Source: an uncultured delta proteobacterium
GTDB lineage: Bacteria; Desulfobacterota; Binatia; UBA9968
Assembly (NCBI GenBank): GCA_963737905.1
Contig: CAVTUQ010000025.1
Coordinates: 192,001-256,000 of the forward strand
Length of the DNA: 64,000 bases
Reading direction: 5' to 3'
The notes under the pieces are model-generated. The model was not told where the DNA came from, did not search any database, and saw nothing but the letters and a program-made list of their open reading frames with translations. Positions 4,239-25,924 of this stretch are shown piece after piece; the first letter of the stretch is position 1; every line of letters starts with the position of its first letter. A program made the translations under genes and the position numbers.

Positions 4239-4940
4239 TCAGGCTACCCGTTCGAGAGTCATTCGACGTCTCAGAACTAAGGCCATGACGTCGCAGCCCT
4301 TACAGTGTGTCTCGATAAACCGACGAAGCGAAGCGAGTTCCACAGGCAAGAAGTATAGCGTACACCTCTCTGTGAGGGCATCGAGAACACTGCTATCAAC
4401 GGTCCCGTAAGAAATCGAGTCGTCCGTGTATGAGATTTCGCTTATTTGAATGCGACGTGGATCGAGGGTTTTCACCACTTCCTTGATCAATCCGATGAAC
4501 AAGTTGATCTTGTCATCATCGGGGCAAGTTGCGGGCGCCCAAGAAAAGTGATTTTTCATTTCTTTCTTAATTTCGTTTTCTTGAATCTCGACCGTTAGGT
4601 CCGTCTCTGTCAGGCGACCGCGAACGAATTCATAGCTCATGGGTTCCTGAATGCTCTTTCGCGAACGGCGCAGAATATAGCGGTCGTGACCGTTGGTCAC
4701 CTCGATATAACCGACACTCATGGGATCCAGTGGCGAGCCACCAGGGAAGAGTTTCTCGCCGCTAGCCCTTAGAGGTTCTAAGCGATGGCCAGCGTGTTGT
4801 GTCATAAACAACCGCCAATCATCGGTTTCCTGTGCTTCGACTGCATCACCTACAAAAACAAAAGCCGGAGCTTTATCAAACGGAGAAACGTGATGGATAG
4901 CGTCACAGACACAGCAATGGATAAACTTTTCGCTACCCAT
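4239..4940 (-). CDS. Hypothetical protein with CxxC...HxxH putative metal-binding motif
   Basis: 233-aa ORF overlapping the upstream kinase by 8 nt. Contains HCCVC near the N-terminus, HAGH and a C-terminal HCKGC. Confidence 0.75.
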   Translation of the reverse strand: MGSEKFIHCCVCDAIHHVSPFDKAPAFVFVGDAVEAQETDDWRLFMTQHAGHRLEPLRASGEKLFPGGSPLDPMSVGYIEVTNGHDRYILRRSRKSIQEPMSYEFVRGRLTETDLTVEIQENEIKKEMKNHFSWAPATCPDDDKINLFIGLIKEVVKTLDPRRIQISEISYTDDSISYGTVDSSVLDALTERCTLYFLPVELASLRRFIETHCKGCDVMALVLRRRMTLERVA

Positions 4941-6054
4941 ACTTGCGCTGCTCCGTGAGCAGGGGAGCCGCGACGCTCGCCTGGGAAGGAAATTTCATCA
5001 GGACGCGAGTGCCTCTGCCCGCTTCACTGTTGATTTCTAGCATTCCACCGATGAGCTCAGCCATCCGGCGCGCGACCGTGAGCCCTAAACCCAACCCGGC
5101 GAAGGAGCGGTGAGACGATGTATCGACCTGGTGAAATGGCTCAAAGATCGAGTCCATCTTATTTTTTTCTATACCGATCCCTGTGTCTGTAACTTCGAAC
5201 TCAATACTCGAATGGTCAGCCGTGGGACGAGCCTTGACTCTAATTTCCCCCTGAGCTGTGAATTTGATTGCGTTGTTAAAAACGTTCTGAAAGATCCTTT
5301 CGACCTTAGAGCGATCACTGACAATTGAAATTCCGGTATCAGCCATTTCAATCGAGAGCGCGAGTCCCTTCTCGGCCAGGATCCGCTCGTATCGCTTGAC
5401 CGCTTCACGCACGACTTCACGGGCGTCGAATTTTTCGATGGTTGCTGTCGCATCGCCGGCGTTGAGAGAAGTCATCCAGAGCACATTATCGATGAGTTCC
5501 AATAATTCCTCGGAGTTACGGTAGACGGTTTCCAAAACCTTTTGTTGCTCCTCGCTCAGTTTGCCAATCACCTGGTTCAGGAGCAGGTAAACAAAACCCA
5601 CCACCACACTCAGGGGAGTTCTCAGCTCATGTGAAATATTAGAGAGAAAATCCGATTTGACCTGTCTTAACTTGCTCTTCGCATTCCGGCGCTCAAGCCC
5701 GCGGCGAACCAGAGATAGGATGTGATTTACATCAAAAGGTTTGGAAATATAGTCAAATGCGCCCAGGCGCAACCCCTCGATCGCCGTATCCAAGGACCCA
5801 TACCCGGTGATGATTATTGCTTCGATATCCGGATCGTACTCCTTCAGCTTTTCGAGCACATGGATTCCTGAGACCCCGGGCATTTTGAGGTCCAACGTCA
5901 CGAGATCGACCGGAAACTTGCCGAGCATTTCAACTGCCTGTCCACCGCGCTCCGCAACGTGTACGTTATAATAGGGGTTGAGAATCATCTTTAATGATTC
6001 CCTGGGACCCATTTCGTCGTCGACAACAAGAATGTGAGGCTTGCTTGTATCCAT
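4933..6054 (-). CDS. Cytoplasmic hybrid response regulator / histidine kinase (REC-HisKA-HATPase)
   Basis: VVDDE, LDLKMP, SKPF; SHELRTPL; NNAIKF, DTGIG, GLGLGL. Confidence 0.93.
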   Translation of the reverse strand: MDTSKPHILVVDDEMGPRESLKMILNPYYNVHVAERGGQAVEMLGKFPVDLVTLDLKMPGVSGIHVLEKLKEYDPDIEAIIITGYGSLDTAIEGLRLGAFDYISKPFDVNHILSLVRRGLERRNAKSKLRQVKSDFLSNISHELRTPLSVVVGFVYLLLNQVIGKLSEEQQKVLETVYRNSEELLELIDNVLWMTSLNAGDATATIEKFDAREVVREAVKRYERILAEKGLALSIEMADTGISIVSDRSKVERIFQNVFNNAIKFTAQGEIRVKARPTADHSSIEFEVTDTGIGIEKNKMDSIFEPFHQVDTSSHRSFAGLGLGLTVARRMAELIGGMLEINSEAGRGTRVLMKFPSQASVAAPLLTEQRKYG

Positions 6055-6067
6055 GCCCGCGGCTTAC

Positions 6068-6083
6068 AGCAAGGAGCATGCCA
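6068..6083 (-). promoter_or_regulatory. Sigma54 (-24/-12) promoter
   Basis: Minus strand reads TGGCATGCTCCTTGCT, with GG and GC at canonical spacing. It lies just downstream of an NtrC-type activator gene. Confidence 0.8.
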
Positions 6084-6174
6084 ATGAATAGGAAAAGCCC
6101 AAATGACGAATTTACAAGCGTAATTTTAAGCCAAGGAAAGGAATAGAGAGAGTTAAGGGAACAATTTTGTCCAA

Positions 6175-7581
6175 TTAGGTCGATAATTTGACTTCCTCAC
6201 CCCCGTCATTAGGTTCGTGGATTTTTAGTTTCTCGATCCGGTACTTAAGAATACGACGGCTGGTTCCGAGAAGTGAAGCGGCTTTGGTCTGATTGAAGCC
6301 GGTTCGTTGGAGAGCCTTAACGATGAGTTCGCGTTCAAATTCGTCTACAGCTTCGCTTAACGGTTTCGAACCACTCAGTACATCCTCTTTGAGCGTCGCG
6401 GTCTGATCCGTGGAACGCATCCCCGCCGGCAGATCCCGCAACATGATCGTTTCGTGTGGCGTAAGGATCGTCAGCCTTTCGATCAGGTTCTCCAGTTCCC
6501 GAATATTTCCAGGCCAGTAGTACGATGTGAAAAAATCCACCACCTCCGGAGACAGGCTTTTGGGCGCCATAGAATGCTCTTGCGCCTTGAGTCTTAAGAA
6601 ATGATCCAAAAGCAGCGCTATGTCTTCGGGCCTTTCCCTCAGGGGAGGGAGGTAAAGCGAAACGACATTGAGCCGGTAGAAAAGATCAGGACGGAACTCC
6701 CCAGCCTTGGCCATCGTTTCCAAATCGCGATTACTGGCAGCGATAACTCGGACATCAACTTTGATTTCATCCGTGCCACCGAGACGGGTAAACGTTTCCT
6801 GCTCTATAGCGCGTAGGAACTTCGCCTGAGTCCCGAGATTGAGTTCACCGATTTCATCGAGAAAAAGCGTCCCCGCATGGGCGAGTTCGAAGCGACCTAC
6901 CTTCTTCTGCGAGGCGTTTGTAAAGGCGCCTTTCTCGTAGCCAAACAATTCACTCTCGATCAAAGTGTCGGGGAGAGCCGCGCAGTTCACCACAACGAAC
7001 GGCTTGGAGCGCCGATCACTATTGTAGTGAATCGCCCGTGCGATCAGCTCCTTCCCCGTTCCACTTTCGCCGGTAATCAGCACCGTGCTTTTTTTGGCCG
7101 CAACCATGCTGACCGCCTTAAACACATCGATGATCTGTTTGGATCGCCCGATGACGTGCTCAACCCCGTACTTGCGGCCGACTTCCTCCTTCAACCGCTC
7201 CAGTTCCCTGAATAAATGGACTTTCTCGAAAGCATGCTCGACTCGCAGGCGCAACTCCTCCACATCGAAGGGCTTGGTCACGTAATCGAAAGCCCCTGTG
7301 CCTTTGGCTGTAAAGGCCGTTCGCGCGGTGTTGAGAGCAGTCAACATGATGACCTGACAATCGGTATGGATCGACCTCATTTGTTTGAGGACGGCCAGAC
7401 CATCGGCACCCGGCATGACAATATCCAACAAAACTACGTCGGGTTTTTCATCCGCAAGCTTCTGAATCGCCTCGTCGGCCGATGTGGCTTCTAAGACACG
7501 ATAAAGCTTGTTAAAAACAAGCTGCAGCGATTGTCTCACTCCAGCCTCGTCATCGACGACTAGCAATAAGGGTTGGCTCAT
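6175..7581 (-). CDS. Sigma54-dependent response regulator (REC-AAA+-Fis HTH, NtrC/AtoC family)
   Basis: GESGTGKE, ESELFG, GAFTNA, LFLDE, FYRLNV, WPGNIREL and NQTKAASLLG. Confidence 0.95.
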   Translation of the reverse strand: MSQPLLLVVDDEAGVRQSLQLVFNKLYRVLEATSADEAIQKLADEKPDVVLLDIVMPGADGLAVLKQMRSIHTDCQVIMLTALNTARTAFTAKGTGAFDYVTKPFDVEELRLRVEHAFEKVHLFRELERLKEEVGRKYGVEHVIGRSKQIIDVFKAVSMVAAKKSTVLITGESGTGKELIARAIHYNSDRRSKPFVVVNCAALPDTLIESELFGYEKGAFTNASQKKVGRFELAHAGTLFLDEIGELNLGTQAKFLRAIEQETFTRLGGTDEIKVDVRVIAASNRDLETMAKAGEFRPDLFYRLNVVSLYLPPLRERPEDIALLLDHFLRLKAQEHSMAPKSLSPEVVDFFTSYYWPGNIRELENLIERLTILTPHETIMLRDLPAGMRSTDQTATLKEDVLSGSKPLSEAVDEFERELIVKALQRTGFNQTKAASLLGTSRRILKYRIEKLKIHEPNDGGEEVKLST

Positions 7582-7600: not shown

Positions 7601-9493
7601 TCAAGCAATTAGGAACTCCATTTTCAAAAGGTCTTTTTCGGTGTCCGAATAGTCGAGGGTCATATGGCCGCCGTTGCGCTCGACCAGTTGTTTTGCGAGC
7701 AGGATGCGTAAGGAGAGTACGGTTTCGCTCGGGCTCGACGACGATTTATCGAAATAATGCGTGATCGACGCGACACGCCCCACTTCACGAAAATATGAGA
7801 TTGCAACGCATCCTTGTTTCTCGACGTTGATCTCAATTTCGCTTCCCATTTTTGCCTGCGACAGTACCGCCAACAGCACGTTCTTCAGAATGTACTTGAC
7901 CTGAGTTTCGTCGGCTTTAATTTCACGGCTATAGCCATTCCCTTTCCAAGTGATTTGGGCCTGCCTCCGGGCACATTCGTTGCTGAGTTCATTTAACGCT
8001 GAGCGAAGTTTTTCCTGCAACGCCACCTTGCTCCAACGGGGCTGCGCGAAGTCGGCAAACTCGATCATCAGCTCAAGCAGGTCATCCATCCGTTCGATAT
8101 CGCCGCCCACGACATCTTGGAAACGGGCCCGGAAATTCTCGTCCTGGTACCTGTCCGTTAGCAGCTGTGCAAAGGTTTTGATGGTGACCATCGGGTTCTT
8201 TAATTCATGGGCTAGCTCATGGATCAAAACGCTTAGGTCCTCTCTTTGGGCATGACTATTCTCTGTGCTAGCCTCCGCGTAGACGCCGTTAAGGGGTTGC
8301 GTCAGACTTTCGGCCCTATCGAGATCGCTTTTTTCTTGAACTTCTGAATGGACCAAGGCTTCAAACGCGGGGATCTCTGGCAATTCTCCCGGCGCCGAAA
8401 AATCGAAAATCAGATCGGCTGCTTCGACCCAGCTCTTCCGTTGCAAGGCCAGCGTCCGGGCGATGACTGTCTCCATTTCGTTTAAGTTTCCAAACCAAAG
8501 GTAGTTGCTGAGACGCTCGTTAGCACCTGCGGAAAGACTCACTTCTCCCAAGCCGAGATAGCTGGCATAAAACTGGCAAAACCAACTGGCGATTGCCGGT
8601 ATATCCTCCCGTCGCTCCCTTAGCGGCCGAAGCGACAATTTCAAGGTGGCGAGCTTATAATAAAGAGACTCCAATAACTCATCCCGATAAACTTTCTCCA
8701 AGATATCGACCCGCGCCGTTGTGATAAGACGGCACTTGCCGAATTTGGCTTCCTCTTCTTCTAAGAAATTCAAGAGTTCCGCCTGGCAGGCTAACGAAAG
8801 CCAATCGACATTCTCAATGATCAATGTAACCGGCGGCGCTTCGCTGCTACGACACCATGACAGTTGAAGGCTCTTTTGATCCAAATAGGCATTGTTGATC
8901 TCGGCCGCATTCAATGAAACCCAGCTACCGAAACGAGCCCCTAAAAAATGAATCCCACGGGCCACGCGTTCCTGACCGCAACCAATCTCCCCCGAGATCA
9001 AAATTGGCAAGCCGGTGACTGCAAACCGATGAACCAGGCTGGCCGCGGCTCGAGCAAGATAAGGGAATTCAAGGTACCGGGTAAACTCTCCTCGAGGCTC
9101 GACTCCAGGATGGTAAAGAGCCTCGGATAGAATGTTTCTGCGGGCTAAGAGTTGCCCCACCTTCTCTTTTAATTCATAGGGGCTAAAGGGCTTGGCTAAA
9201 CAGCCAACCCTTTCTCGGTCATCGATCGCCCTTGCAGCTGATTTCGAATCCACCAGAAACAAAACCGCGAAGGGCGCTTTGTCCGCAAATCTCAAGAGAC
9301 TAGAGGGCTCCTTCCCGATAGCTGGTGTGACGCCGAGAATTAGTAGGTCCACATCGCGGTCAGTTTCAGCAAACGAAAAGGCGCCTTTTCCAAAAGGCCT
9401 CTTTGCGACGACAAACTCCCGCCCCAAGATAAGGGCCAGGGTCTCCCGCACGACCTCAGACTCCTCAATGACTAAGATTCGCTTCGTTTGCAT
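7601..9493 (-). CDS. Fusion of degenerate receiver, degenerate sigma54-activator AAA+ domain, HisKA (DHp) and degenerate HATPase
   Basis: REC with LLILG in place of the phospho-Asp; ISGEIGCGQE; PLRERREDIP; WFGNLNEM; LAHELKNP; no G boxes. Confidence 0.8.
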   Translation of the reverse strand: MQTKRILVIEESEVVRETLALILGREFVVAKRPFGKGAFSFAETDRDVDLLILGVTPAIGKEPSSLLRFADKAPFAVLFLVDSKSAARAIDDRERVGCLAKPFSPYELKEKVGQLLARRNILSEALYHPGVEPRGEFTRYLEFPYLARAAASLVHRFAVTGLPILISGEIGCGQERVARGIHFLGARFGSWVSLNAAEINNAYLDQKSLQLSWCRSSEAPPVTLIIENVDWLSLACQAELLNFLEEEEAKFGKCRLITTARVDILEKVYRDELLESLYYKLATLKLSLRPLRERREDIPAIASWFCQFYASYLGLGEVSLSAGANERLSNYLWFGNLNEMETVIARTLALQRKSWVEAADLIFDFSAPGELPEIPAFEALVHSEVQEKSDLDRAESLTQPLNGVYAEASTENSHAQREDLSVLIHELAHELKNPMVTIKTFAQLLTDRYQDENFRARFQDVVGGDIERMDDLLELMIEFADFAQPRWSKVALQEKLRSALNELSNECARRQAQITWKGNGYSREIKADETQVKYILKNVLLAVLSQAKMGSEIEINVEKQGCVAISYFREVGRVASITHYFDKSSSSPSETVLSLRILLAKQLVERNGGHMTLDYSDTEKDLLKMEFLIA

Positions 9494-11633
9494 GAGCGCG
9501 CCCGTTGCTTAATTGACGAATCGGCTTACCCGTTGGCAAATTTATAAAAAATGTTGTTCCAACACCGACTTTACTCTCAACCGTGACAAATCCCCCATGT
9601 TCCTGGACAATTTGATGGGAAATCGAAAGCCCCAGGCCGCTACCCTCGTCTTTGCTGGTAAAAAATGGATCGAAGATATGGTCCAAGTTCTCGGCTGGAA
9701 TCCCTATCCCTGTATCGCGGACCTCAACTTGAACAAATTGGCCCGAGTGTCCTGCTTCGTCTCTGGAAATGAGTCGTGTGGATACGAAGATTGACCCACC
9801 CTCTCTCATTGCCTGGATGGCATTAAGTATAAGGTTCATAAATACCTGCTTCATCTGCTCCCTGTCAATCCAGACTCTAGGCAACCCCGGGCCAAAATCC
9901 CTTGTAATCTCAACACCTTTCTCCTTGGCCTCGCTCTCCAAGATACGCGCAATCCCGTCCACAACATCATTCATATTTTCTTCCGCGACATTGGGGCGCG
10001 ACGGCCGTGCAAAACTCAAGAGATCGTTGATCAAGCCGCAAATGCGATCCACCTCCTTCAGTGCAATGCCCTGAAATCCCTCACGAAATTCAGCGTCATT
10101 GTAACGCTCCGGCAAAAGCTGGGTGAAAGTCCGGATGGCGACTAAGGGATTGCGAATTTCGTGGGCGAGTCCGGCGGTAAGTAGTCCCAAAGAAGAAAGC
10201 CGGTCCGCCCGGCGGAGCGTATCCTGGGACTGCTTAAGGTTTTCATAGAGTCGAGCATTTTCTAAAGCAATAGCGGCCTGATTGGCTAAAGTGGACAAGA
10301 GTTCCAAATCTTCGCTAGAATAGATTTCCTTCTCCCGCTTGTGACCCAAATTGAGGATCCCGATAAGTTTCTCTTTGGAAATGATTGGCACGCTAATTTC
10401 TGCACCGAGTTCTCCCATTTTTTCCGCAACCTCGAGTCCAGAGACCCTATCCTGAGCCATTTCTAGTTCTTCCTTAACGACTCCCTCCTGGCTACCCGTC
10501 AGCCGCTGAATCAGTGGATCACTCTTCGAAAGCAAGGCTTGAAGGTATCCGTTTCTCTCCTGACCGATGTTTGCTTTGAGATTATAAACTCCCTTGGTCT
10601 CATCCAACAAATAAAAAGATGCGGTTTCAGTCCCCAGAGCCCGGCTAACCGTCTTCACCAGACTATTGGATAAATTTTCTAAATCGACGATAGATACCAT
10701 TTCCTTGCTGGAACGAAGAAGCGTTTCCCGGTAATTGACGCGTTTCTGGAAGAGAACTCTTTCCAATGCGTCTTCAGTCTTGAATCGAACCTTCGGAAAA
10801 AGAAATCCCACCATAATAAAAAGCATGAGGGTAACCATGGAGAACGTGTAATTGATACTGTCGAAAGCAAGCTTTTGCCCCCAAACAACCACGAGGAAAC
10901 AAGGAACTAAAAGTGCCGCCAATAGAAGTGCATAAATAAGACTCTTCCTGATTACGACCTCAATATCGAGGAGTCTGTACCGAGCGATGGCATATGTGAT
11001 CGGAGCTGTATAAAGATACGCTAACGGCGCTCCGAACGGCTGAATTCCAGCCTGAATTATTGGTAAGAACGACGTCCCTGCGCCCAGAAAGCCTATGAGA
11101 CTAGCGTAGATAGCATACCTCAGTTGATTCTTTCGAACTGGCAGATCGCTCCGTTTATACCCATCAATCAACCGATACAGTCCGTAAGAAGGGATTGAGA
11201 CATAAAGAACGAAATGCAAAATATAGGCTTTGGTAGGAATTTCGTAGAAGCCAAGCGAGGGATCGGCGCGTACTCCTCGTGTAAGAGCCCCATTAATTAA
11301 CAAAAGAAAATCTACGATCGCTGCGACGTACCCTGCCAGCAGCACCGCCCGGCTTTCATCCTCCTCTCCCAAAAGAGAAACGCAAAAATGAAGATAAACA
11401 GGAGGGACGAATATTGCGGAAAAATAGATCAGATACACAGTTTGCTCTGCAACATACCTCGTTTCAGCAATGGCAATCAGAAAACGGCCTGCGTGCCAAA
11501 CACTAATTGACAAGCACAGTAGAAACCAAGTTCGACGAACGATAGGTTTTGATTGCCCACGGTACAGGACAAATAGCCCTGCAAATAGGCTAAGAAAAGT
11601 TCCCAGAAGAAAGTTTACTTCGTACCAGGTCAT
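9465..11633 (-). CDS. Membrane sensor histidine kinase (multi-TM HisKA_7TM-like N-terminus, GAF, HisKA, HATPase)
   Basis: About 8-9 hydrophobic helices; GAF ending [15 protein letters not shown]; LAHEIRNPL; NLILNA, DTGIG, GSGLGL. Confidence 0.92.
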
Positions 11634-11635
11634 GT

Positions 11636-12895
11636 TTATGCGTCAAACTTCCGGATGACGCACGCGGCGTTGTGTCCCCCAAAGCCGCTTGAATTGGAAA
11701 GTATCGTTGAGATGCGCAAAGGTCTCCCGACATTCGGAACGTAATCCAGGTCGCATTCCGGATCCTTTGACGCTAAATTGATAGTAGGATGGACGTATTG
11801 ATTCTCCAGGGTTAAAGCGCACGCTACAAATTCCAAAGCGCCACAAGCACCCATGGTATGACCGACGATTGATTTGGTTGAATTTACTACTAAGCCGTAG
11901 GCGTGGCCACCGAAGGCTCTTTTGATTGCAAGTGTCTCGATCTTGTCATTAAGAACTGTGCCACTACCATGAGCGTTCACATAGTCAATCTCCTTTGGCA
12001 TTACACCAGCATCTGCTAAAGCCTTTAGCATTGCTTTGGCTCCAAATTCAGCCGACGGTAGCGGCTGCAGCTCGTGGTAACTATCAAAGGTAGCAGCATA
12101 GCCTAAGATCTCGCCGTATATTTTTGCTAGGCGTCGCTGCGCGTGCTCAAGTTCCTCTAAGATTACCAAGGCTGCCCCTTCTGCCAGTACGGTGCCGTTT
12201 CGATCCTTGCTGAACGGACGGCACGCCTTGGTCGGTTGATCATTCTCAGTCGATAGGATCCCCGCGGAAGAAAAGGTAGCTATAGCCAAAGGTGTGATCG
12301 GAGCCTCAGAAGCTCCGGCAATAGCAATATCAAAACTGCCATCCCTGATGGAGCGAAAAGCTTCTCCAATAGCGCTAGTTCCAGACGCACATGCGCTTGT
12401 AATTGTTGAGACTGACCCATGTATCCCCAACGCCTTGCCAATTTGGGCTGGGCACGAGCTTGGGAGAGCACTGTGATTAAAAAAAGGAGGGATTCGTCTC
12501 AAGCCTTTCGTAACGAAAAGCGAGTGAATTTCCTCTGCCTGAGAAAACGCACCCAAGGAAGTCCCAAGGACAACACAGGTTCTTTCTCGATCGCAAGAAT
12601 CAAACTGTCTCGTTAGATCTGCATCCTCCCAGGCAAGTTTTCCAGCAGCCAAGCCTAGAAGAGAAAACCTACTCAGGCGACGGGTTAGCTCATAGGGATG
12701 AAAGGCGTGAGGGTCGAAATCCTCCATCTGTCCTGCAATCCTTACGGGATATGTCTCAGCATCGAAACTCGTGATAGGGCGGATTCCTGAGCGGCCGTGT
12801 TTCAATGCGTCCCAAAACTGCGCCTTCCCGATTCCCACTGAGGACAGAATACCCAAGCCAGTGATCACAACCCTACGACGATTAGGTAACGTCAC
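11636..12895 (-). CDS. Beta-ketoacyl-ACP synthase II-like ketosynthase (FabF family)
   Basis: RRVVITGLG; Cys-His-His triad in TSACASG, NAHGSGT and KSIVGH; NSSGFGG. AGGAG RBS before GTG. Confidence 0.93.
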   Translation of the reverse strand: MTLPNRRRVVITGLGILSSVGIGKAQFWDALKHGRSGIRPITSFDAETYPVRIAGQMEDFDPHAFHPYELTRRLSRFSLLGLAAGKLAWEDADLTRQFDSCDRERTCVVLGTSLGAFSQAEEIHSLFVTKGLRRIPPFFNHSALPSSCPAQIGKALGIHGSVSTITSACASGTSAIGEAFRSIRDGSFDIAIAGASEAPITPLAIATFSSAGILSTENDQPTKACRPFSKDRNGTVLAEGAALVILEELEHAQRRLAKIYGEILGYAATFDSYHELQPLPSAEFGAKAMLKALADAGVMPKEIDYVNAHGSGTVLNDKIETLAIKRAFGGHAYGLVVNSTKSIVGHTMGACGALEFVACALTLENQYVHPTINLASKDPECDLDYVPNVGRPLRISTILSNSSGFGGHNAACVIRKFDA

Positions 12896-13034
12896 ACGTT
12901 GCTCCTAATAGTTCTTAAACCAGGGAATGGCTAACGTAATAAAGAATCGGCTGTTAAATTTTCGCGCGAGTCGTTTTACTCTAATAGTCTGAGAATTAGG
13001 ACTAGGGATTTTCATAACCGTACCGTTGCTGCCG

Positions 13035-13214
13035 TCAGGATTCAATGTTCGAGTTCTTTCTCAACCAATCGTCGATCAAATTCTGCTTGAAACGCCATTG
13101 ACTCCCTACTTTAAAGGCGGGTATTTTTTTTTGGGTGACTAATCGATAAACGGTGAACTTGTCTACCCTTAAATATTGGGCAACTTGGTCGATTGTCAGG
13201 AGTTTCTCTTGCAT
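13035..13214 (-). CDS. Small excisionase-like HTH DNA-binding protein (HTH_17/BldC-like)
   Basis: LLTIDQVAQYLRVDKFTVYRLV...IPAFKVGSQWRF...IDDWL. Confidence 0.9.
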   Translation of the reverse strand: MQEKLLTIDQVAQYLRVDKFTVYRLVTQKKIPAFKVGSQWRFKQNLIDDWLRKNSNIES

Positions 13215-13225
13215 AATCATGCCCT

Positions 13226-13246
13226 TTATGACAGTTTCTGTCATAA
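13226..13246. promoter_or_regulatory. Perfect palindrome TTATGACAG-TTT-CTGTCATAA, putative operator
   Basis: 9-3-9 inverted repeat in the divergent HTH/ACP intergenic region. Confidence 0.65.
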
Positions 13247-13315
13247 TCTTTGCACTGTTTGCTTTCTTTTGATAGCCATATATAACAGATAGCAAATTGA
13301 GTCAAACTACCCACA

Positions 13316-13582
13316 GTGACCCCGGATAAATCAAAATCTGTCGAGGAAAACCTTAAGGAATTGATCGCTCAGGAGTTCGGGGTGGACCGGTCCAGAATAT
13401 CTCGTCACTCCAAAGTTAAGGAATTAGGGCGAGACTCCTTAGCGTTGTTAGAGCTCCTAGCTACAGTCGAAATTCAATTTGAGATTTCAATTCCAGACGA
13501 AGAAGCAACAAAAATATCATCCTTTGAATCACTGGTTCATTCAATAGAAAAGCATCTAGAGATGAAGTCAGACTCGACATGA
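13316..13582 (+). CDS. Acyl carrier protein
   Basis: LGRDSLALLEL phosphopantetheine Ser motif; FEISIPDEEA. Confidence 0.9.
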   Translation: MTPDKSKSVEENLKELIAQEFGVDRSRISRHSKVKELGRDSLALLELLATVEIQFEISIPDEEATKISSFESLVHSIEKHLEMKSDST

Positions 13583-14856
13583 AGGAAAGACGAGTAGTTG
13601 TCACTGGAACCGGATTAATTACTCCCTTTGGTATTGGCCGGAGAAAATTTTGGGACGCAATTAGATCAGGATGTTCAGGAATTTCTAAGATTCGTCAATT
13701 TGACTCGTCTCAGTTGAAGTGCCAAATCGCTGGGGCCTGCCACGACTTTGATCCGGCTTTTTTTTTTCTGGATCCGGACGATTTTCGCAGGATGGATCGA
13801 GTTTCCCAATTTGCTGTAGCGGCTGGATCCTTAGCCGTCAGAGAAAGTGGACTATGTAAGAACAGCTGCGACACTGGTGTTATAATCGGAACAGGGCTTG
13901 GCGGAATAACAACCGATGATGTGCAACATGCATTACTGCACGCAAAGGGAGCAAGGTTCGTTCAACCCACAGCCATTCCGATGATTATGTACAATGCTGC
14001 GGCGAGCCATATTTCTAGCCGTTTCGGCTTCAAAGGGCCAGGGTACACCATTACAACTGCGTGCGCGTCAGGCACACAAGCCATCGGAGAGGCTTACAGA
14101 CTAATTAAACACGGCTATACTCATACTATGATTGCTGGGGGCGCAGACGCACCATTAAGTTTTGGAATTTTCAGCGCGTGGTGTGCTTTGAGAATTCTCT
14201 CAACGAGAAACAGCGATCCCACAACTGCTTGCAGGCCATTTAGCCAGGATAGAGATGGCATGGTCTTAGCCGAAGGCGCAGGCATTGTGGTTCTAGAGGA
14301 ATTACAACATGCTATGAATCGATTCTCACCTATACATGCAGAGGTTATTGGCTATGGTTCGAGTAACGATGCATATCATATCACGCATCCGGACGTGGAC
14401 GGAGAGGCCGAAGCGATAAAAAATGCCATGAAAGATGCCGGACTCGCTCCGAACGATATAGATTATATAAACGCACACGGTACGGGTACAAAAATAAATG
14501 ATTTGGCCGAGACAGCAGCAATCAAAAAGGTGTTCGAGAAGCGAGCATACTCTGTTCCTATAAGCTCTACAAAGTCGATGATCGGACATGCTATGGGTGG
14601 TGCCGGCGCAATAGAATTCATAGTTTGCTGCCTATCGCTCCAACATGATCTTATCCCGCCCACTATAAACTACTACGTTCGTGACCCCGAATGTGACCTC
14701 GACTACGTACCAAATGTTGCTAGGGCGGAGTCACTTGATATAGCCATGTCCAACTCCTTTGGCTTCGGAGGCACGAACGCGGTTCTTATTCTCAAAAAGC
14801 TTTCACAGAATTTGGACGTTGCGGTCGCTCATAGGCCAAATCCGACACCGTCATAA
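13579..14856 (+). CDS. Beta-ketoacyl-ACP synthase II-like ketosynthase (FabF family)
   Basis: RRVVVTGTG; TACASG, NAHGTGT, KSMIGH; NSFGFGG. 4-nt overlap with the ACP gene. Confidence 0.94.
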   Translation: MKERRVVVTGTGLITPFGIGRRKFWDAIRSGCSGISKIRQFDSSQLKCQIAGACHDFDPAFFFLDPDDFRRMDRVSQFAVAAGSLAVRESGLCKNSCDTGVIIGTGLGGITTDDVQHALLHAKGARFVQPTAIPMIMYNAAASHISSRFGFKGPGYTITTACASGTQAIGEAYRLIKHGYTHTMIAGGADAPLSFGIFSAWCALRILSTRNSDPTTACRPFSQDRDGMVLAEGAGIVVLEELQHAMNRFSPIHAEVIGYGSSNDAYHITHPDVDGEAEAIKNAMKDAGLAPNDIDYINAHGTGTKINDLAETAAIKKVFEKRAYSVPISSTKSMIGHAMGGAGAIEFIVCCLSLQHDLIPPTINYYVRDPECDLDYVPNVARAESLDIAMSNSFGFGGTNAVLILKKLSQNLDVAVAHRPNPTPS

Positions 14857-15108
14857 GTCTACTGGAGCTCTTGTCGAACTGAGCTTCAAGACGGAGGATG
14901 CGGCTGCCCGTTTTAACTGGCTTTAATTCTGGTTCGTCCTGCTACTTCCAGGTTCTCGTTCTTGTCCGACCAGTAAGTCGTTAATTTCTTCAAGTTTTGG
15001 GTTTTCGAACGTGTGGTAGTTTAGCAAAATTTTCTTGCACCGATGCGGTTGTTATGACATCATTTAGCAACAATTAGCAGCCTTATAGCAAAATTGGAGA
15101 AAGTCTGG

Positions 15109-16398
15109 ATGAACCTATACAATTGGTTTCGAATTTTCGCTTTAGTACTTGCTACAATCACCCCCAGAGTGGCCTTTCCGGGTGGATTCATGCTGCCTTA
15201 CCAGACCGCAAGAGGCCTTGCCTTGTCAAACGCGCTCACCGCTGGCATTGATGATCCGTCAGCCGTATTTTATAACCCTGCCGGTTTGGGGGAGGTAACT
15301 GGAAATCAACTTTTGATCAACGGGACTTATATAAATGCCCAAAACAGCGTCGAAAACAGCGGGAGAAAAGTTACAAACAAACATGACAACAACTTCCTCG
15401 CAACTTTTTTTGCGAACTATCACATCCCAGGCACTGATTTCACCCTCGGGATAGGCACCTATACCCCGTTCGGACTCGCGACAGAATATGGAAATGATAC
15501 TTTCACTCGTTTTGCTGCAATCGATACGGAGCTAAAAACCATTTATGTCACGCCTGCTTTGTCTTGGAAACCATCAAATTATTTTTCTTTCGGTGCCGGG
15601 CTGAGTTTTGTTCATTCTTCGGAAGTTGTTTCTAGAGCATTGTGCTTCGATCCCATTTCCGGTTGTACGCAGCCTTTAGGTCTCGAAGGAAAAGTTCGAA
15701 TTACTGACACAGCAGATGCGTTCGCTTATAACCTTGGCTTCCTTGTTAAACCTACGGAGAATCTCAAGTTCGGATTTAGCTACAGATCACGGGTCGACCT
15801 GCGATTCGATAACGCCGATGCAAAGTTCGGAGGCTCGTTCTCGATCCCAACGGTGAAGAGCAATGTCAGACCATTGCCGCTTCCTCCAGTTATTAACGCC
15901 GGACTCTTTTGGCAAATTACTCCTTCATGGGGCGCCGAGTTTGTCTATGAGTACACGCGATGGAGCGAAGTTAAGAGTCTCAGCGCAAGTTTTTCCCCAA
16001 TACCTTTATTTCTACCACTCGGCGTACCAGTATCTGGTTTCAGTTCACCTCAGGAATGGAAAAATACTAGCACCTTACGATTTGGCAGTTTTTACCGGTT
16101 CGACGATAGATGGGAAATACGAGGAGGAATAGGTTTAGAAGAAACACCAATTCCAAACCGAACGCTCAGCCCTGCCATTCCAGGCGCCGACCTTTTTACC
16201 CTTAATACTGGAGTGGGCTACAAATGGCATAGTATGACTGTCGATCTCGGCTATACTGCGGTGTTTTACCAAACACGTCGAATAACTAACTCCGAGCTAG
16301 AAGGACTTACAGGCATACCATTTCTAGGCGCGCCAGGAAAAGATAAATACCAAAACTTCGGAAACCTGGTGTCTCTCACGTTGGGATACCGTTTCTAG
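15109..16398 (+). CDS. OmpP1/FadL family outer-membrane hydrophobic-compound channel
   Basis: Signal peptide, GGF...ARGLALSNA, DDPSAVFYNPAGL hatch motif, C-terminal GYRF. GGAGA RBS. Confidence 0.9.
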   Translation: MNLYNWFRIFALVLATITPRVAFPGGFMLPYQTARGLALSNALTAGIDDPSAVFYNPAGLGEVTGNQLLINGTYINAQNSVENSGRKVTNKHDNNFLATFFANYHIPGTDFTLGIGTYTPFGLATEYGNDTFTRFAAIDTELKTIYVTPALSWKPSNYFSFGAGLSFVHSSEVVSRALCFDPISGCTQPLGLEGKVRITDTADAFAYNLGFLVKPTENLKFGFSYRSRVDLRFDNADAKFGGSFSIPTVKSNVRPLPLPPVINAGLFWQITPSWGAEFVYEYTRWSEVKSLSASFSPIPLFLPLGVPVSGFSSPQEWKNTSTLRFGSFYRFDDRWEIRGGIGLEETPIPNRTLSPAIPGADLFTLNTGVGYKWHSMTVDLGYTAVFYQTRRITNSELEGLTGIPFLGAPGKDKYQNFGNLVSLTLGYRF

Positions 16399-20526: not shown

Positions 20527-21996
20527 GTGCCCATCCCTTCCATGAAAACTAACTCGAAATCACCCGCGCTACAGACAGCAGAAAGGGACAGTATCATCGT
20601 CTGTCAAACCAGCCAGGGCTACAGCGTCCGGGCAACCCCGCTTCGCATCACACGCGATGTGGTCGCTTTTGAGGTCTATAATCCATATAGCATCCTCCAG
20701 CTCTCCGAGGTTCTACAAGAATTCAGAATCATCGTTAATGAAAAGTTGATTTATTCGGGACGTGCAACGGTCAGCAATCTTCTGAACATAGGCATCATGC
20801 TGGTCTGCGAGGCCACACTAGACGAGGGCTGGCTCGAGGTGGATCTTTTCGCCCTGGTCACTCAGCCGAAAAGATTACGGGCTGATTTCATCGATTTTCT
20901 CAAGGAGTGGGAGAGGATCAACATCATTTTGCCTGAGTACAAGGTAGTCTTGGCCGATATACAGAACTATTTTATCGATCTCAACCGTTGGCTGGAGCAG
21001 GTAGAGTTAGGAATCCGCTCCTCATCCTCCCTCGATCGGCGAAAAATGGAGCTCGAGGTCATCCAAACGTTGGCGCCGACTATCCTACCTTCCATCGATA
21101 CCCTCTTTACAAGGTTCGAAGAGATCGCCGACAAAGTACCCGACGAACTCCTGCCGTTCCATAGGACCTACGCCAAACGGCAGCTCCATCCGCAGGTCCT
21201 CTGCTCGCCCTTCGCATACCGCACGTACCATAAGCCGCTTGGGTACGCCGGTGATTACGAAACAGTGAACATGATTCTGCGAGAGCCCCTGGAAGGGAGC
21301 TCGATGTTTGCCAAGACAATAAACACGTGGTTACTGAAACAACCTTCAGCGGAGGCGCATCGAAATCGGATCAAGTATCTCACCGCGCAACTCGTCAAAG
21401 AAACACATCGCATCGCTCAGCAAGGCTCGATCGCCCAAATTTTTAGTATCGGATGCGGACCGGCCGGAGAGGTAAAGAATTTCCTGATTCAAGAAGAGCT
21501 GTCTAACAAGGCCCGCTTCACGTTGTTAGACTTCAACGATGAAACGCTCCAGCATACGGCCAAGGTGCTCGACGAAGCCAAACAACAGCACCATCGCAGC
21601 ACCGAGATCGAGATGGTCAAGAAATCGGTCCATCAGATCCTCAAGGAAGCAGGCAAACAACCGGTAGATCAGAAGTATGATCTTATTTATTGCGCTGGCC
21701 TTTTCGATTATCTCTCGGATCGTGTTTGCAAGAGACTCATGAATATCCTGTACGATATGCTCGCCCCCTATGGTCTTCTCTTGGCAACCAATGTTCATGC
21801 GTCCAATCCCAACCGTAATAGCATGGATTTTTTTCTGGAGTGGCACCTTGTTCATCGAAACCACGCGCAATTGGAGCACCTCAAACCTGATCTCGCGCCC
21901 GAGGGAAGCTTTAGCGAAAACCAGGAAGTGACGGGCGTTAACATCTTTATCGAGGTAAGAAAGCCCAGTGAAACAAGCCATCTGGAACGATCCTGA
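20527..21996 (+). CDS. PhcB-like class I SAM-dependent methyltransferase (3-hydroxy fatty acid methyl ester synthase family)
   Basis: KPLGYAGDY, AHRNRI, SIGCGP, LLDFN, CAGLFDYL and LEWHLVHR. Followed by a kinase and a REC-kinase gene, as in phcBSR. Confidence 0.78.
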   Translation: MPIPSMKTNSKSPALQTAERDSIIVCQTSQGYSVRATPLRITRDVVAFEVYNPYSILQLSEVLQEFRIIVNEKLIYSGRATVSNLLNIGIMLVCEATLDEGWLEVDLFALVTQPKRLRADFIDFLKEWERINIILPEYKVVLADIQNYFIDLNRWLEQVELGIRSSSSLDRRKMELEVIQTLAPTILPSIDTLFTRFEEIADKVPDELLPFHRTYAKRQLHPQVLCSPFAYRTYHKPLGYAGDYETVNMILREPLEGSSMFAKTINTWLLKQPSAEAHRNRIKYLTAQLVKETHRIAQQGSIAQIFSIGCGPAGEVKNFLIQEELSNKARFTLLDFNDETLQHTAKVLDEAKQQHHRSTEIEMVKKSVHQILKEAGKQPVDQKYDLIYCAGLFDYLSDRVCKRLMNILYDMLAPYGLLLATNVHASNPNRNSMDFFLEWHLVHRNHAQLEHLKPDLAPEGSFSENQEVTGVNIFIEVRKPSETSHLERS

Positions 21997-24652
21997 ATTT
22001 CAGCAGGCGTTCCTCGACCACGAAAGGCAAGTGCGGATCAACACAGGCAAACTTGCTTGTGCACTGGTCGTCGTCTTAATGCCCTTCGGGGTCTTGCTCG
22101 ATTATGCAGTCTACCCCGATAAAGTTGGGTATTTCTTCAAGTTGAGGCTTCTCTGTTCTGTTTTAGTTGGCATTATCTGGCTGGTTCACCGAACGCGCTG
22201 GGCGAGAAACCATTACCGGCTACTCGGACTTCCGATCGTGATGCTGCCAGCCTTTTTTATTGCCTTCATGATTTTCGTTACCCACGGCGCTAGTTCTCCT
22301 TATTACGCTGGGCTAAATTTAATACTCCTCGCCGTTAGTGCTGTGGGACACTGGAGTTTTCGTGACACAATGATCTCTGTCACCAGTGTTATACTCATGT
22401 ATTTCGGCGCGTCCTATCTAAACGCAGCAAACTTTGACATTAGGAATTTCATCAACAATCTTTATTTTCTTGTCTTGACTGGCATTATCGTTGTTGCCGG
22501 AAATTATCTCTATACTCGACTGCTCTTTCGAGAATTCGAGGTTCGTTTTCAGTTGGACAGAAGTCGGCTGATGCTGGAGGAAAGCAACCGAAAACTCCTC
22601 GAGCTGGATCAAGTTAAAAGCCGTTTTTTCGCCAACATCAGCCACGAGTTGCGCACGCCTCTCACCCTTCTATTGGCTCCCTTGCAAACCCTCCTCCAAG
22701 AGCGTGGCTTAACCTTGGACCCTGAAAAGCGCCAGCTGCTTCTCATTATGCAAAGCAACGGCATGCGACTTCTCAAACTCATCAATGACTTGTTAGACTT
22801 GGTTCGGCTGGAATCCGGCAAGATGGAGGTGAAGCGAGATCCCATCGCCCTGGAGCCATTCTTACACGGTCTGGCCAATGCCGTGAAAAAAAGCGCCGAA
22901 GACCGAGGTCTGCGCCTCGAAGTGACCTCCGATCCGGCCATCAGCACCGTGCTTACCGACAGCGACAAGTTAGAACGAATTTTACTCAACCTATTGTTCA
23001 ACGCCCTTAAGTTTACTCCTGCCGGTGGAAAGGTTGAACTTGAGGCAAGGCACGAGAACGGCGAACTGGTGCTGCAAGTTTCCGACACGGGCACGGGCAT
23101 CAGCGAGGAACAGCTCCCGTTTATCTTCGACCGCTTTTGGCAGGCGGACACCTCATCCCAAAGAAAGTACCGCGGTGTGGGAATTGGATTGGCACTGGTG
23201 AAGGAGTTGGTAGAGATCCAGGGCGGGAAAGTCGCAGTCACCAGCGCGATCGGCAAGGGCACACAGTTTACAGTTCGCTTGCCTTACGAGGAGTTGGGTT
23301 GCCAGTTTTCACAGATGGCGGAAGAGGCTGAACGTCTCACTGCGCTTCCATCACCCCTAGTTTCAGCCGGGACAGATGGGAGACCCGACCCCTGGCCGAG
23401 AAATCTCGACAGGCAGGCGGTATTTTATCCCTCCATGACCTCGCTCAGAGAAACGATTCGGCCCGTGGAGACCTCCATTCACAGCGGGCAACCTCGCCTT
23501 CTCATTGCCGATGACGAGCCGGACATGCTCAAGTATCTGAAATCCCAGTTGAGCGTTGACTTTCAGGTGATCGAGGCGGTGGATGGTCAGCAGGCTGCCG
23601 AAAAAGCTAGCCAATTTTTGCCCGACGTGATTGTGTGCGACATGATGATGCCCGAAAAGAACGGACTTGAGGTTTGCCGTGAACTCAGAGAACGGACATC
23701 GACCCGTTCCATCCCTATCCTCTTGCTTACCGCCCGGGCGGATGAAGAAACCAAGCTCGCCGCGCTATCCGCAGGCGCAAACGACTTCATTACCAAACCG
23801 TTTTCCATGACCGAGTTGAGCGTCCGGCTGAAAAATCTTTTTGATACTCACAACCTGCAGCAGGAACTTGCCCGCCAGAACCAAATTCTCGAGGCCACAA
23901 TCGAGCAGCTGAAAGAGACCGAAGTCCAATTGGTGCACTCAGAAAAACTGGCATCACTAGGACGCATGAGCGCCGGCATTATTCATGAAATCAACAATCC
24001 GCTCAATTTCGCGAAAACCGCACTGTATGTGCTGCGCATTATGACTGAGTCATTGGGCGGAAATGAGAAAAAAGAATTTCGAGAGGTTCTCGAAGATATG
24101 GGCGAGGGTATCAATCGCATCAGCGGCATCGTATCGGATCTCCGCACTTTCACGCAACCCCATTTAACCCAACCCGAGACAGTTTCCGCTATGGAAGTGG
24201 TCAATTCGGCCTTGCGCCTCCTGAGTAACGAGTGGGAGAACAAAGTGAGAGTTGAAAAGGAAATCCCGGAAAACCAGACCATCTGGGCCAATCGCAACCA
24301 GATCACCCAAGTTCTGGTGAACCTGCTGCAAAATGCCCTGCATGCGCTGGCAAAGAAGCATTGCTCTGAAACTGGAGCCACCATCTGGATTCGCGGCCTC
24401 GAGGAAAACGGCGAGAGCCTCATTATCCTCCGGGATAATGGCGAAGGGATTACTTCTGAAAATCTTCCGAAAATTTTCGATCCGTTTTTTACTACCAAAG
24501 ATGTGGGTGAGGGCATGGGACTTGGGCTTAGTATCTGTTACCGTATCATGAAGCAGCACGGCGGGCGCATCCAGGTGCAGAGCGAACCCGGTACCTATTC
24601 CGTATTCACATTACACTTTCCACAGAAACCAATAAACTCAATGCCCGCTTGA
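21968..24652 (+). CDS. Membrane hybrid sensor kinase, TM-HisKA-HATPase-REC-HisKA-HATPase (PhcS position)
   Basis: About 6 TM helices with SPYYAGL; SHELRTPL; REC IADDE/CDMMMP/TKPF; second H-box IHEINNPL and GMGLGL. Confidence 0.9.
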   Translation: MKQAIWNDPEFQQAFLDHERQVRINTGKLACALVVVLMPFGVLLDYAVYPDKVGYFFKLRLLCSVLVGIIWLVHRTRWARNHYRLLGLPIVMLPAFFIAFMIFVTHGASSPYYAGLNLILLAVSAVGHWSFRDTMISVTSVILMYFGASYLNAANFDIRNFINNLYFLVLTGIIVVAGNYLYTRLLFREFEVRFQLDRSRLMLEESNRKLLELDQVKSRFFANISHELRTPLTLLLAPLQTLLQERGLTLDPEKRQLLLIMQSNGMRLLKLINDLLDLVRLESGKMEVKRDPIALEPFLHGLANAVKKSAEDRGLRLEVTSDPAISTVLTDSDKLERILLNLLFNALKFTPAGGKVELEARHENGELVLQVSDTGTGISEEQLPFIFDRFWQADTSSQRKYRGVGIGLALVKELVEIQGGKVAVTSAIGKGTQFTVRLPYEELGCQFSQMAEEAERLTALPSPLVSAGTDGRPDPWPRNLDRQAVFYPSMTSLRETIRPVETSIHSGQPRLLIADDEPDMLKYLKSQLSVDFQVIEAVDGQQAAEKASQFLPDVIVCDMMMPEKNGLEVCRELRERTSTRSIPILLLTARADEETKLAALSAGANDFITKPFSMTELSVRLKNLFDTHNLQQELARQNQILEATIEQLKETEVQLVHSEKLASLGRMSAGIIHEINNPLNFAKTALYVLRIMTESLGGNEKKEFREVLEDMGEGINRISGIVSDLRTFTQPHLTQPETVSAMEVVNSALRLLSNEWENKVRVEKEIPENQTIWANRNQITQVLVNLLQNALHALAKKHCSETGATIWIRGLEENGESLIILRDNGEGITSENLPKIFDPFFTTKDVGEGMGLGLSICYRIMKQHGGRIQVQSEPGTYSVFTLHFPQKPINSMPA

Positions 24653-24661
24653 GGAGAAATT

Positions 24662-25924
24662 ATGGAGATTTTTTACGACTATCAGAACTGCGCAATTCTT
24701 TATGTAGACGACGAAGAAATGTCGCTCAAATATTTTACCCGAGCCTTTGGAAGTAAATTCCGGGTTTTCAGCGCGGCCAACGCCTCTGACGGTTACCGGC
24801 TCCTGGAACAACATCGACATGAGATCGGGCTTCTGATGACGGACCAGCGGATGCCGGGTGAAAAAGGAGTGCAATTTTTAGAGCGAGCGCGCCAATTGCA
24901 TCCGCGGGCGATTCGTATTCTGACCACGGCGTACTCCGATCTCGATGTCGCCATCGAGGCGGTCAACTCGGGGGCCATTTATAAATATGTCACCAAGCCC
25001 TGGGACATTCCTCAGCTGGAGGTGACTCTTCGGCGGGCCTTGGAATTTTTTATTGTCCAGCGGGAGAGAGATCTACTTCTCAAAGAAAAGCTTTCAGCGC
25101 TGCAGAGGATGTTGATCACCGACCGGGTCCTCAGTTTGGGAATTCTGGCCGCCCGACTGGGCCACTATATGCGCAATTCACTCGTCGCTGTTCGAACCTT
25201 TTTGGATCTCGCTCCGGAGAAGCTCCTCGAGGAAAAGGTCGATGCGGAACGCATGCGAAATCCAAACTTTTGGAAGGAGTTCTACGAGCAAGCCCAGGTT
25301 CAAATCCGACGCATTACAGGTTTATTAACCGACCTCGTCATTGCGACTGAAAGAAGCGACTCCCCGAGCCTCCAGGAATTGCAACTGGATGAAACCGTTG
25401 CAGGTAGCGTTGAAAAGTTAAAAGACAGTTTGTTACAAAATGGTATCACGGTCATGAATCAAATTCCCGCCGGGCTCCCGCTCTTATTGGTGGAGCATGA
25501 AAAATTTCAACGTCTCTTCGACCTGCTGCTGAAGGATGAGATCATCAGCTTGCCCCCCGGAAGTCACATCTTCCTCACCGCACGCTTGGGCTCCGGGGCA
25601 GAGGAAGAAGTGGAATTTGAGCTGCGGGATGACGGTCCGGGGCTACCTAGAGAGGCGCTACGTTCGGTATTCGATCCCTTTTCTCTTCCCATAGGGGACC
25701 ACCATGAATTCGGTATTAATCTTATGGCCTGTTACTTCATCATCTATCATCACGGCGGGAGAATCGACGTCCAAAACCAAGAGGGTCAGGGTGTCACTTT
25801 CACCCTGACCTTTCCCGTGCGACCGAAAATGGCCTCACCCGAGGAAGAGGAGGAGGCCTTTATCACCAAAGTACTGATGAATGATGCGTTCTGGGAAAGA
25901 CTAGTGGCTGGCGAGAGCCAATAG
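24662..25924 (+). CDS. Response regulator with degenerate histidine-kinase output (PhcR/PhcQ-like)
   Basis: LYVDDE, TDQRMPG, TKPW; H-box GHYMRN; DDGPG present but N and G2 boxes degenerate. Confidence 0.82.
   Translation: MEIFYDYQNCAILYVDDEEMSLKYFTRAFGSKFRVFSAANASDGYRLLEQHRHEIGLLMTDQRMPGEKGVQFLERARQLHPRAIRILTTAYSDLDVAIEAVNSGAIYKYVTKPWDIPQLEVTLRRALEFFIVQRERDLLLKEKLSALQRMLITDRVLSLGILAARLGHYMRNSLVAVRTFLDLAPEKLLEEKVDAERMRNPNFWKEFYEQAQVQIRRITGLLTDLVIATERSDSPSLQELQLDETVAGSVEKLKDSLLQNGITVMNQIPAGLPLLLVEHEKFQRLFDLLLKDEIISLPPGSHIFLTARLGSGAEEEVEFELRDDGPGLPREALRSVFDPFSLPIGDHHEFGINLMACYFIIYHHGGRIDVQNQEGQGVTFTLTFPVRPKMASPEEEEEAFITKVLMNDAFWERLVAGESQ

Follow-up and report, generated by a model that had tools for sequence, protein, structure and literature searches.

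The window analysed here, a stretch of 64,000 nucleotides, carries on its reverse strand a gene, hereafter X, located between the genes for a sensor kinase and an NtrC-type enhancer-binding protein (bEBP). The kinase gene overlaps the start of X by 29 bp, and a sigma-54 promoter motif and two further genes lie behind ntrC (Table 1). As stated in a preliminary description of the locus, X is an uninterrupted open frame of 630 aa. Its product is a chimera of enzymatically dead copies of both neighbours, the sensor kinase and the sigma-54 activator.

Table 1. Features of the X locus in window coordinates
Feature	Position	Strand	Description
Cys/His-rich protein gene	4239..4940	-	233 aa; conserved behind the REC gene across distant families
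REC-HisKA-HATPase gene	4933..6054	-	373 aa; likely first target gene
Sigma-54 promoter	6069..6083	-	-24/-12 motif TGGCATGCTCCTTGC, 15 nt before the next ATG
Near-palindrome	6158..6172	-	GGACAAAATTGTTCC, just behind the ntrC stop; conserved; candidate enhancer
ntrC	6175..7581	-	468 aa; REC, AAA+, HTH_8; all catalytic residues; loop GAFTNA
ntrC alternative start	7608	-	TTG
Gene X	7601..9493	-	630 aa; pseudo-REC, pseudo-sigma54 AAA+, linker, DHp, pseudo-CA
X pseudo-CA	7604..8044	-	aa 484-630; retains the fold but neither the second N-box Asn nor G1 and G2
X DHp	8045..8245	-	aa 417-483; intact; His429, Glu430, Asn433, Pro434
X Asn433 codon	8195-8197	-	
X His429 codon	8207-8209	-	
X linker	8246..8398	-	aa 366-416; variable, predicted disordered, at the position of NtrC's HTH
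X degenerate AAA+	8399..9082	-	aa 138-365; lid motif kept
X pseudo-receiver	9134..9493	-	aa 1-120; Gly54 in place of phospho-Asp
Sensor kinase gene	9465..11633	-	722 aa; cognate kinase; HisKA_7TM, GAF, HisKA, HATPase_c

The pseudo-receiver reads LVIEES at the acidic pair and LLILG54 at the phospho-Asp position. In the AAA+ domain Walker A is GEIGCGQE, where Gln174 replaces the Lys, and Walker B is IIENVD; PLRERREDIP and WFGNLNEM are retained, and Asn338 corresponds to sensor-II Arg361 of the adjoining NtrC. The stretch LAHELKNPMVTIKTFAQLL was also read directly in the X sequence. Pfam returned Sigma54_activat/Sigma54_activ_2, AAA_lid_14 and HisKA above cut-off and Response_reg below it (E=0.07), with no match to HTH_8, HATPase_c or PAS, and a profile alignment against NtrC orthologues (hhalign probability 100 over 372 columns) placed a deletion at the GAFTGA loop. 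All X motifs quoted in the preliminary description are present in the sequence, and both the HTH and the GAFTGA loop are missing as it had claimed. Its statement that the N, G1 and G2 boxes are gone holds for G1, G2 and the second N-box Asn (Ala542 replaces kinase Asn604) but not for the first Asn, which remains as Asn538 (kinase Asn600). Likewise, the HATPase is dead in that its nucleotide boxes are lost, but the CA fold is still present in an AlphaFold2 model.

In this model, built from a 59-row alignment, all four domains fold (mean pLDDT 85.3) and the stretches 126-131, 378-418 and 573-589 are disordered; with a pTM of 0.49 the packing of the domains is not resolved. Foldseek with a 29-row model identified NtrC1 (1ny5), NtrX (5m7n) and NtrC4 as best matches and, lower, the kinase cores of HprS and ZraS. 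A sequence search with the pseudo-CA gave ZraS and other ordinary kinase cores, with no ChpT among its 13 matches.

Conserved residues, spread and selection

Residues were scored in an alignment of 125 rows, 91 representatives of 500-700 aa and 34 locus proteins, from which P0241 and P0263 were removed as non-members; the remaining 123 rows overlap, are kin and were collected by a profile that includes the DHp. None has the G[AS][FY]TxA loop. The AAA+ site has Walker A Lys in 55/123 rows, Walker B DE in 2/123 and sensor-II Arg in 15/123, the three never occurring together. At the ATP site of the kinase half the G2 box is absent (0/123) and a DxGxG-like string (3/123) and the second N-box Asn (7/123) are rare, so autokinase activity is impossible. 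A complete receiver phospho-site (acidic pair, Asp and Lys) occurs in none of the 110 rows with a REC region, seven distant rows retaining Asp and Lys without the full acidic pair. Judged by these residues, X would count neither as a bEBP nor as a kinase under the defining features of either class. In the DHp, the His is kept in 122 rows, the Asn at H+4 in all 123 and an acid at H+1 in 114 (Glu 106, Asp 8); the nine rows with a non-acidic H+1 represent about three lineages.

The only invariant residues of the diverse 59-row alignment are Gly171, Leu291, Trp333, Glu339, Arg346, Asn433 and Pro434. Pfam matched HisKA in all 59 of these members and HATPase_c in three, and HTH_8 was absent from the families matched. 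Within the AAA+ domain, constancy is greatest in the lid and PLRER motifs. Strong conservation is also seen in beta1-alpha1 and the KPF loop of the pseudo-receiver, with beta1-alpha1 ranking first among close homologues (0.95). Five loci of one family, plus further lineages (L056-L060), are without the pseudo-receiver, and in L056 and L058 the Walker A region is unrecognisable as well. Given the loss of the pseudo-receiver in some lineages, the constant core of X consists of the AAA+ lid and the DHp-CA.

One locus, L053:449-3906, contains an orphan X homologue with Ser for the His, directly followed by a REC-GAF-HD-GYP gene and without NtrC. It was considered as support for a His-independent phosphatase and rejected, being an orphan and the sole locus that lacks NtrC. 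Since no clear NtrC or kinase orthologue was found in its genome, L053 does not prove the His dispensable.

Among the matches listed there are at least 120 X homologues with 57-99% identity, mostly full length, and the records of the close ones are assigned to Candidatus Binatia or Deltaproteobacteria. A profile search of 50% representatives placed 83 proteins of 555-700 aa within the best 150. In its own class, X, with a match extending to the CA end, occurs in at least 86 of 201 sampled genomes, a lower bound counted by hand among the matches listed, ordinary bEBPs being matched in all 201; with a stricter profile it was found in 18 of 301 genomes from the phylum. Two unnamed clusters of look-alikes, most frequent in Binatota and Myxococcota, are present in the ESM Atlas. 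X is common in an uncultured class and extends to other families of the phylum, and so points to a signalling cassette that is old and undescribed. In databases these proteins go under 'NtrC family response regulator' or 'sigma 54-interacting regulator', although none of them can act as an activator. The preliminary description had proposed a catalytically dead yet conserved adaptor, and this agrees with the abundance and intactness of the homologues and with the result of the NCBIfam search, in which none of the 25 matches listed reached the cut-off.

The dN/dS ratio, which the same description had suggested determining, comes to 0.09 and 0.11 in the two closest pairs and thus indicates purifying selection. 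By region, the pseudo-receiver is lowest at 0.02 and the linker highest at 0.3-0.4, with the DHp at 0.04-0.05, the pseudo-AAA+ at 0.07-0.15 and the pseudo-CA at 0.09-0.11. The possibility that X is a decaying duplicate without function finds some footing in its divergence, which is much faster than that of NtrC (43% against 73% identity in L021), and in its being spread over three frames in one of 21 close loci (L020). It is refuted by the selection and distribution data and has next to no probability: dN/dS remains below 0.35 in every pair with an estimable dS, the class-search matches listed are without internal stops, and X forms a single old clade in phylogenetic trees. Splits over several frames, either assembly errors or true breaks, occur in X of L020 and in NtrC of L011, L057 and L073.

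Partner genes, putative target operon and origin

Neighbouring genes were compared in loci chosen from search matches and not at random, and in these X lies immediately upstream of an NtrC orthologue in 54 of 55 informative cases (21/21, 13/14 and 20/20). The gap between X and ntrC is at most 40 bp in 44 of 49 measured pairs, with rough start calls. The NtrC orthologues have all catalytic residues in 36/36, including Asp53, and a G[A/S][F/Y]T[N/D]A loop. In five out of five genomes without an X match a clear NtrC orthologue was absent as well (best 40-46%). The kinase adjoins X in 39 of 49 loci (14/14, 14/15 and 11/20); the ten genomes without an adjacent kinase have a likely orthologue elsewhere in six cases and a possible one in one, none being found in three. 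These patterns suggest that NtrC is the constant partner of X and that the kinase is separable.

The DHp of X was compared with that of the cognate kinase in 39 pairs, eight others in which the anchor motif was not found being left out. Positions presumed to contact the receiver or to determine dimer choice were assigned from work on EnvZ. Identical residues are found at H+7 in 34 pairs, at H+11 in 37 and at H+12 in 34, and at the base of the DHp 7-13 of 18 positions are identical in 26 pairs and only 0-3 of 18 in the other 13. This combination of a common docking top and a diverged base points to NtrC's receiver, and not the kinase, as the conserved ligand of X. At H+1 all 39 kinases have Glu, whereas X has Glu in 28, Asp in 6, Arg in 4 and Lys in 1; the Asn at H+4 is invariant in the cognate kinases too.

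In L001, L004, L005, L016 and L050 the sensor of the kinase is swapped, giving a form of about 500 aa with an unchanged transmitter, preceded by genes for a PhnD-like binding protein, an MFS transporter and a VTC-domain protein. In the window, the region upstream of the kinase (11636-16398) contains FabF-like genes together with an acyl-carrier-like ORF (13316-13582) and a gene for a FadL-type porin, and in many distant loci the 7TM kinase comes after a FabF-like gene (set: L002, L013, L020, L021, L040-L047). Based on these FabF- and FadL-like neighbours the input of the cassette kinase may be a lipid-derived signal. A small ORF between the two FabF-like genes (13035-13295, reverse strand) encodes what we take to be an excisionase-type helix-turn-helix protein.

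Of 33 loci, 25 have a sigma-54 pattern behind ntrC, where its frequency in the window itself would predict 0.046 per region. All 16 aligned close loci share unchanged GGC and TTGC cores in the promoter, with the near-palindrome about 80 bp upstream. Among distant loci the strict pattern is rare (2/18), which limits the evidence for the promoter to the nearer families and a single distant group. In the close loci only about 15 nt separate the -12 element from the ATG (window 6055-6068, reverse strand), from which, with the usual sigma-54 spacing, a leader of about 3 nt and a nearly leaderless mRNA would follow. The conserved promoter points to a putative target operon that contains a receiver. 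The receiver of the 373-aa protein resembles that of NtrC in alpha1. In the window's class the downstream REC gene includes a kinase part, in other families an HD-GYP part; no such gene was detected in 8 of 20 distant loci, nor in L045, L047 and L048. The 233-aa protein is likely a sigma-54-controlled output; it matched nothing in Pfam or NCBIfam, and nothing at or above 0.9 in the ESM Atlas.

With respect to origin, X is a single clade in the DHp tree (support 100/96), which groups with the adjacent kinases as opposed to 21 other kinases of the genome (83/86, from few columns). X and the adjacent NtrC are separated from 11 other REC-bEBPs of the genome in the REC tree (99/98) and the AAA+ tree (85/88), both of which have long X branches and no true root; one bEBP without lid motif was excluded. 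When the genome was searched with profiles of the individual domains, the adjacent genes came first for the DHp and, marginally, for REC (60.8 vs 58.9 bits), whereas the AAA profile placed the adjacent NtrC only at rank 11 of 37, which is why the origin is argued from the trees together with the REC and DHp profiles. Gene order and trees make it most likely that X arose once, by tandem duplication of a kinase-activator operon. A fusing deletion, by which the first activator lost its HTH and the second kinase its sensor, most likely followed.

Possible action of X on NtrC

From the anatomy, purifying selection, linkage, residue patterns and promoter motif we infer a model for the binding of X, its activities and the sign of regulation. 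X may well be a counter-transmitter, dead as a kinase, whose docking on the NtrC receiver drains or gates the phosphate of that receiver, a reading we hold with as much doubt as belief. In a three-gene HK-X-NtrC cassette, the active kinase would phosphorylate NtrC, and X would supply a second, soluble DHp with the receiver specificity of the kinase and bind the NtrC receiver. By hydrolysis assisted by Asn433, by transfer of the phosphate back onto His429, or by both, X would lower or threshold NtrC~P. The dead REC-AAA+ half would be no enzyme and would most likely serve either to hold X on NtrC or to gate the DHp within the molecule, and the output would be a sigma-54 promoter that drives a gene with a receiver together with the conserved Cys/His-rich protein, which belongs to no known family.

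This reading is based on the purifying selection on X, strongest outside the pseudo-receiver in the DHp, on the linkage to NtrC and on the docking residues that match those of the cognate kinase. An invariant H+4 Asn combined with a relaxed H+1 acid and an absent ATP site fits a drain on NtrC~P. Published systems are cited here and below from excerpts of the respective papers. In CrdS, the H box of which (LAHEIKNPL) is nearly that of X, the H+1 Glu is described as dispensable for phosphatase but not for kinase activity and the H+4 Asn as the reverse, and the isolated DHp of NtrB and of EnvZ suffices for phosphatase activity (PMC3510030). A precedent is RedE, a kinase-dead phosphatase that also takes phosphate on its His (PMC2755868); RedE, however, is described there as requiring ADP or ATP and as having a conserved HATPase, whereas X has no HATPase and probably binds no nucleotide. 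Further points speak against a drain. PhyT has an X-like signature and is nevertheless a transferase and sequesterer (PMC5898713), and DivL stabilises the phosphate of its regulator (PMC4211667). The near-complete retention of the His and the frequent H+1 Glu exceed what a pure phosphatase needs, and the Asn, invariant in the kinases too, may be structural. The rows with a non-acidic H+1 come from about three lineages only, in a set collected with a profile that includes the DHp. Finally, the retained AAA+ lid, with Leu291, Trp333, Glu339 and Arg346, is left unexplained.

In an extended form of the draining model, which we consider rather unlikely, X would be a tethered reset subunit: the dead REC-AAA+ half would cap or co-assemble with the NtrC oligomer and in this way bring in a DHp that strips phosphate from neighbouring receivers, and the sigma-54-induced REC protein would compete for the DHp and close a feedback loop. 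If true, X would be a regulator assembled from fused pseudo-enzyme copies of the two partners of a two-component system; no such design was found in the literature searched.

Another direction of phosphate flow can be envisaged, as in ChpT or PhyT, in which X takes phosphate on His429 from a second receiver, that of the downstream REC-kinase or of another donor, passes it to NtrC and blocks direct phosphorylation, forming a gated or positive-feedback relay. Loss of the His in the orphan locus alone, and a DHp with degenerate CA, the anatomy of PhyT, ChpT and Spo0B in the excerpts of PMC5898713, would suit such a transferase, and a second receiver with a similar alpha1 does lie downstream in many loci, fused to an intact kinase in the window's family. 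We nevertheless think it unlikely, though less so than the other rivals, as the cognate kinase shares the docking residues, has an intact CA and can reach NtrC directly, and as the downstream REC gene was undetected in the loci named above and is fused to HD-GYP instead of a kinase in several lineages. The preliminary description had listed a phosphate sink or relay among possible mechanisms, and this remains the best fit.

Another of its proposals, a heterodimer with the kinase, has lost ground through the ten loci with a non-adjacent kinase, undetected in three of these genomes, and the 13 pairs with a diverged DHp base. Inhibition of the kinase, by such a heterodimer or by a pseudo-receiver occupying the kinase's docking site, is therefore in our view very improbable; the loss of the pseudo-receiver in some lineages disagrees with it too, even though the two genes overlap in the window, the base remains 7-13/18 identical in 26 pairs and beta1-alpha1 is the most conserved pseudo-receiver element among close homologues. 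X could instead be a stoichiometric anti-activator, NifL-like or a ring poison, that binds NtrC through its dead REC-AAA+ half, its DHp-CA or both and prevents a productive hexamer without phosphate chemistry; poisoning of NtrC hexamers was the third mechanism suggested in the preliminary description. Such a role would fit the tight operon coupling to ntrC and the constancy of the lid and PLRER motifs. The kinase-like NifL is described as sterically blocking the bEBP NifA (PMC12998190), and paralogous bEBPs as able to hetero-oligomerise (PMC9542535), for instance FleQ/FleT, HrpR/HrpS and VnfA in the excerpts of the latter. Anti-activation has no need for an invariant His and Asn or for kinase-matched docking residues, nor does it suit the several lineages without pseudo-receiver or the unrecognisable Walker A of L056 and L058; NifA moreover is without receiver, whereas NtrC here keeps Asp53 in all orthologues. 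We regard it as improbable.

Related systems and other features of the window

By analogy, X may work like known pseudo-kinase regulators. RedE, of the Myxococcus xanthus RedCDEF system, is like X in being kinase-like, having the His and being encoded with an active kinase; it does not autophosphorylate, accepts phosphate from one receiver protein and dephosphorylates another (PMC2755868, excerpts). It is described as a bare transmitter of 242 aa in which the HisKA is poorly conserved and the HATPase is conserved and nucleotide-dependent. In X the pattern is reversed, with HisKA intact and HATPase dead, and a pseudo-REC-AAA+ half is added; X shares the H+4 Asn/Thr of RedE-type phosphatases (123/123) without their conserved nucleotide-binding HATPase. 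The excerpts of PMC5898713 describe PhyT/PhyP of Sphingomonas melonis, ChpT and Spo0B as combining, like X, a DHp with His and HxxxN with a degenerate ATPase domain. PhyT/PhyP is encoded at the locus of its regulator, which it binds and gates. PhyT, with a non-acidic H+1, was first called a phosphatase, showed no such activity in vitro and proved a forward phosphotransferase and sequesterer. Unlike X, PhyT is membrane-anchored with a sensor domain, and PhyT, ChpT and Spo0B are all portrayed there without bEBP-derived domains.

NifL of Azotobacter vinelandii, homologous to histidine kinases but inactive as one, exerts negative control over a sigma-54 bEBP, and according to the excerpts of PMC12998190 it has PAS sensors and a nucleotide-binding GHKL domain and acts on a target without receiver. 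X differs in having no PAS match and no nucleotide boxes, in keeping the receiver-docking helix and in the intact receiver of its target. DivL of Caulobacter, a dead transmitter, binds a response regulator through its DHp, yet has Tyr for the His, which X keeps, and stabilises DivK~P (PMC4211667, excerpts). With NtrC-family bEBPs (NtrC1 1ny5, NtrX 5m7n) X shares the REC-AAA+ fold and the lid motifs, and it differs from them in the missing GAFTGA loop, the incomplete ATPase site and the DHp-CA in place of the HTH.

The literature searched, open without subscription, contains no description of a pseudo-REC/AAA+/DHp/CA protein or an HK-X-NtrC cassette, though the architecture may be listed in large annotation tables. 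A possible dedicated phosphatase role, the putative sigma-54 target operon and the precedents of NifL, PhyT and RedE go beyond the preliminary description, and in their light the principle is less new than the architecture. The cassette would test how far the rule for H+1 and H+4 residues reaches in predicting pseudo-kinase function, and whether a phosphatase or transferase can be directed to a bEBP by a dead AAA+ module. As all its parts but the sensor are soluble, it could be rebuilt in vitro.

Elsewhere in the window (20527-25924, forward strand) lie a SAM-methyltransferase-like gene, a hybrid kinase and a REC protein with a degenerate transmitter that reads LGHYMRNS at the H box, the second kinase-degenerate protein in the window. 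We take the layout of these genes to resemble that of phcBSR quorum sensing in Ralstonia.
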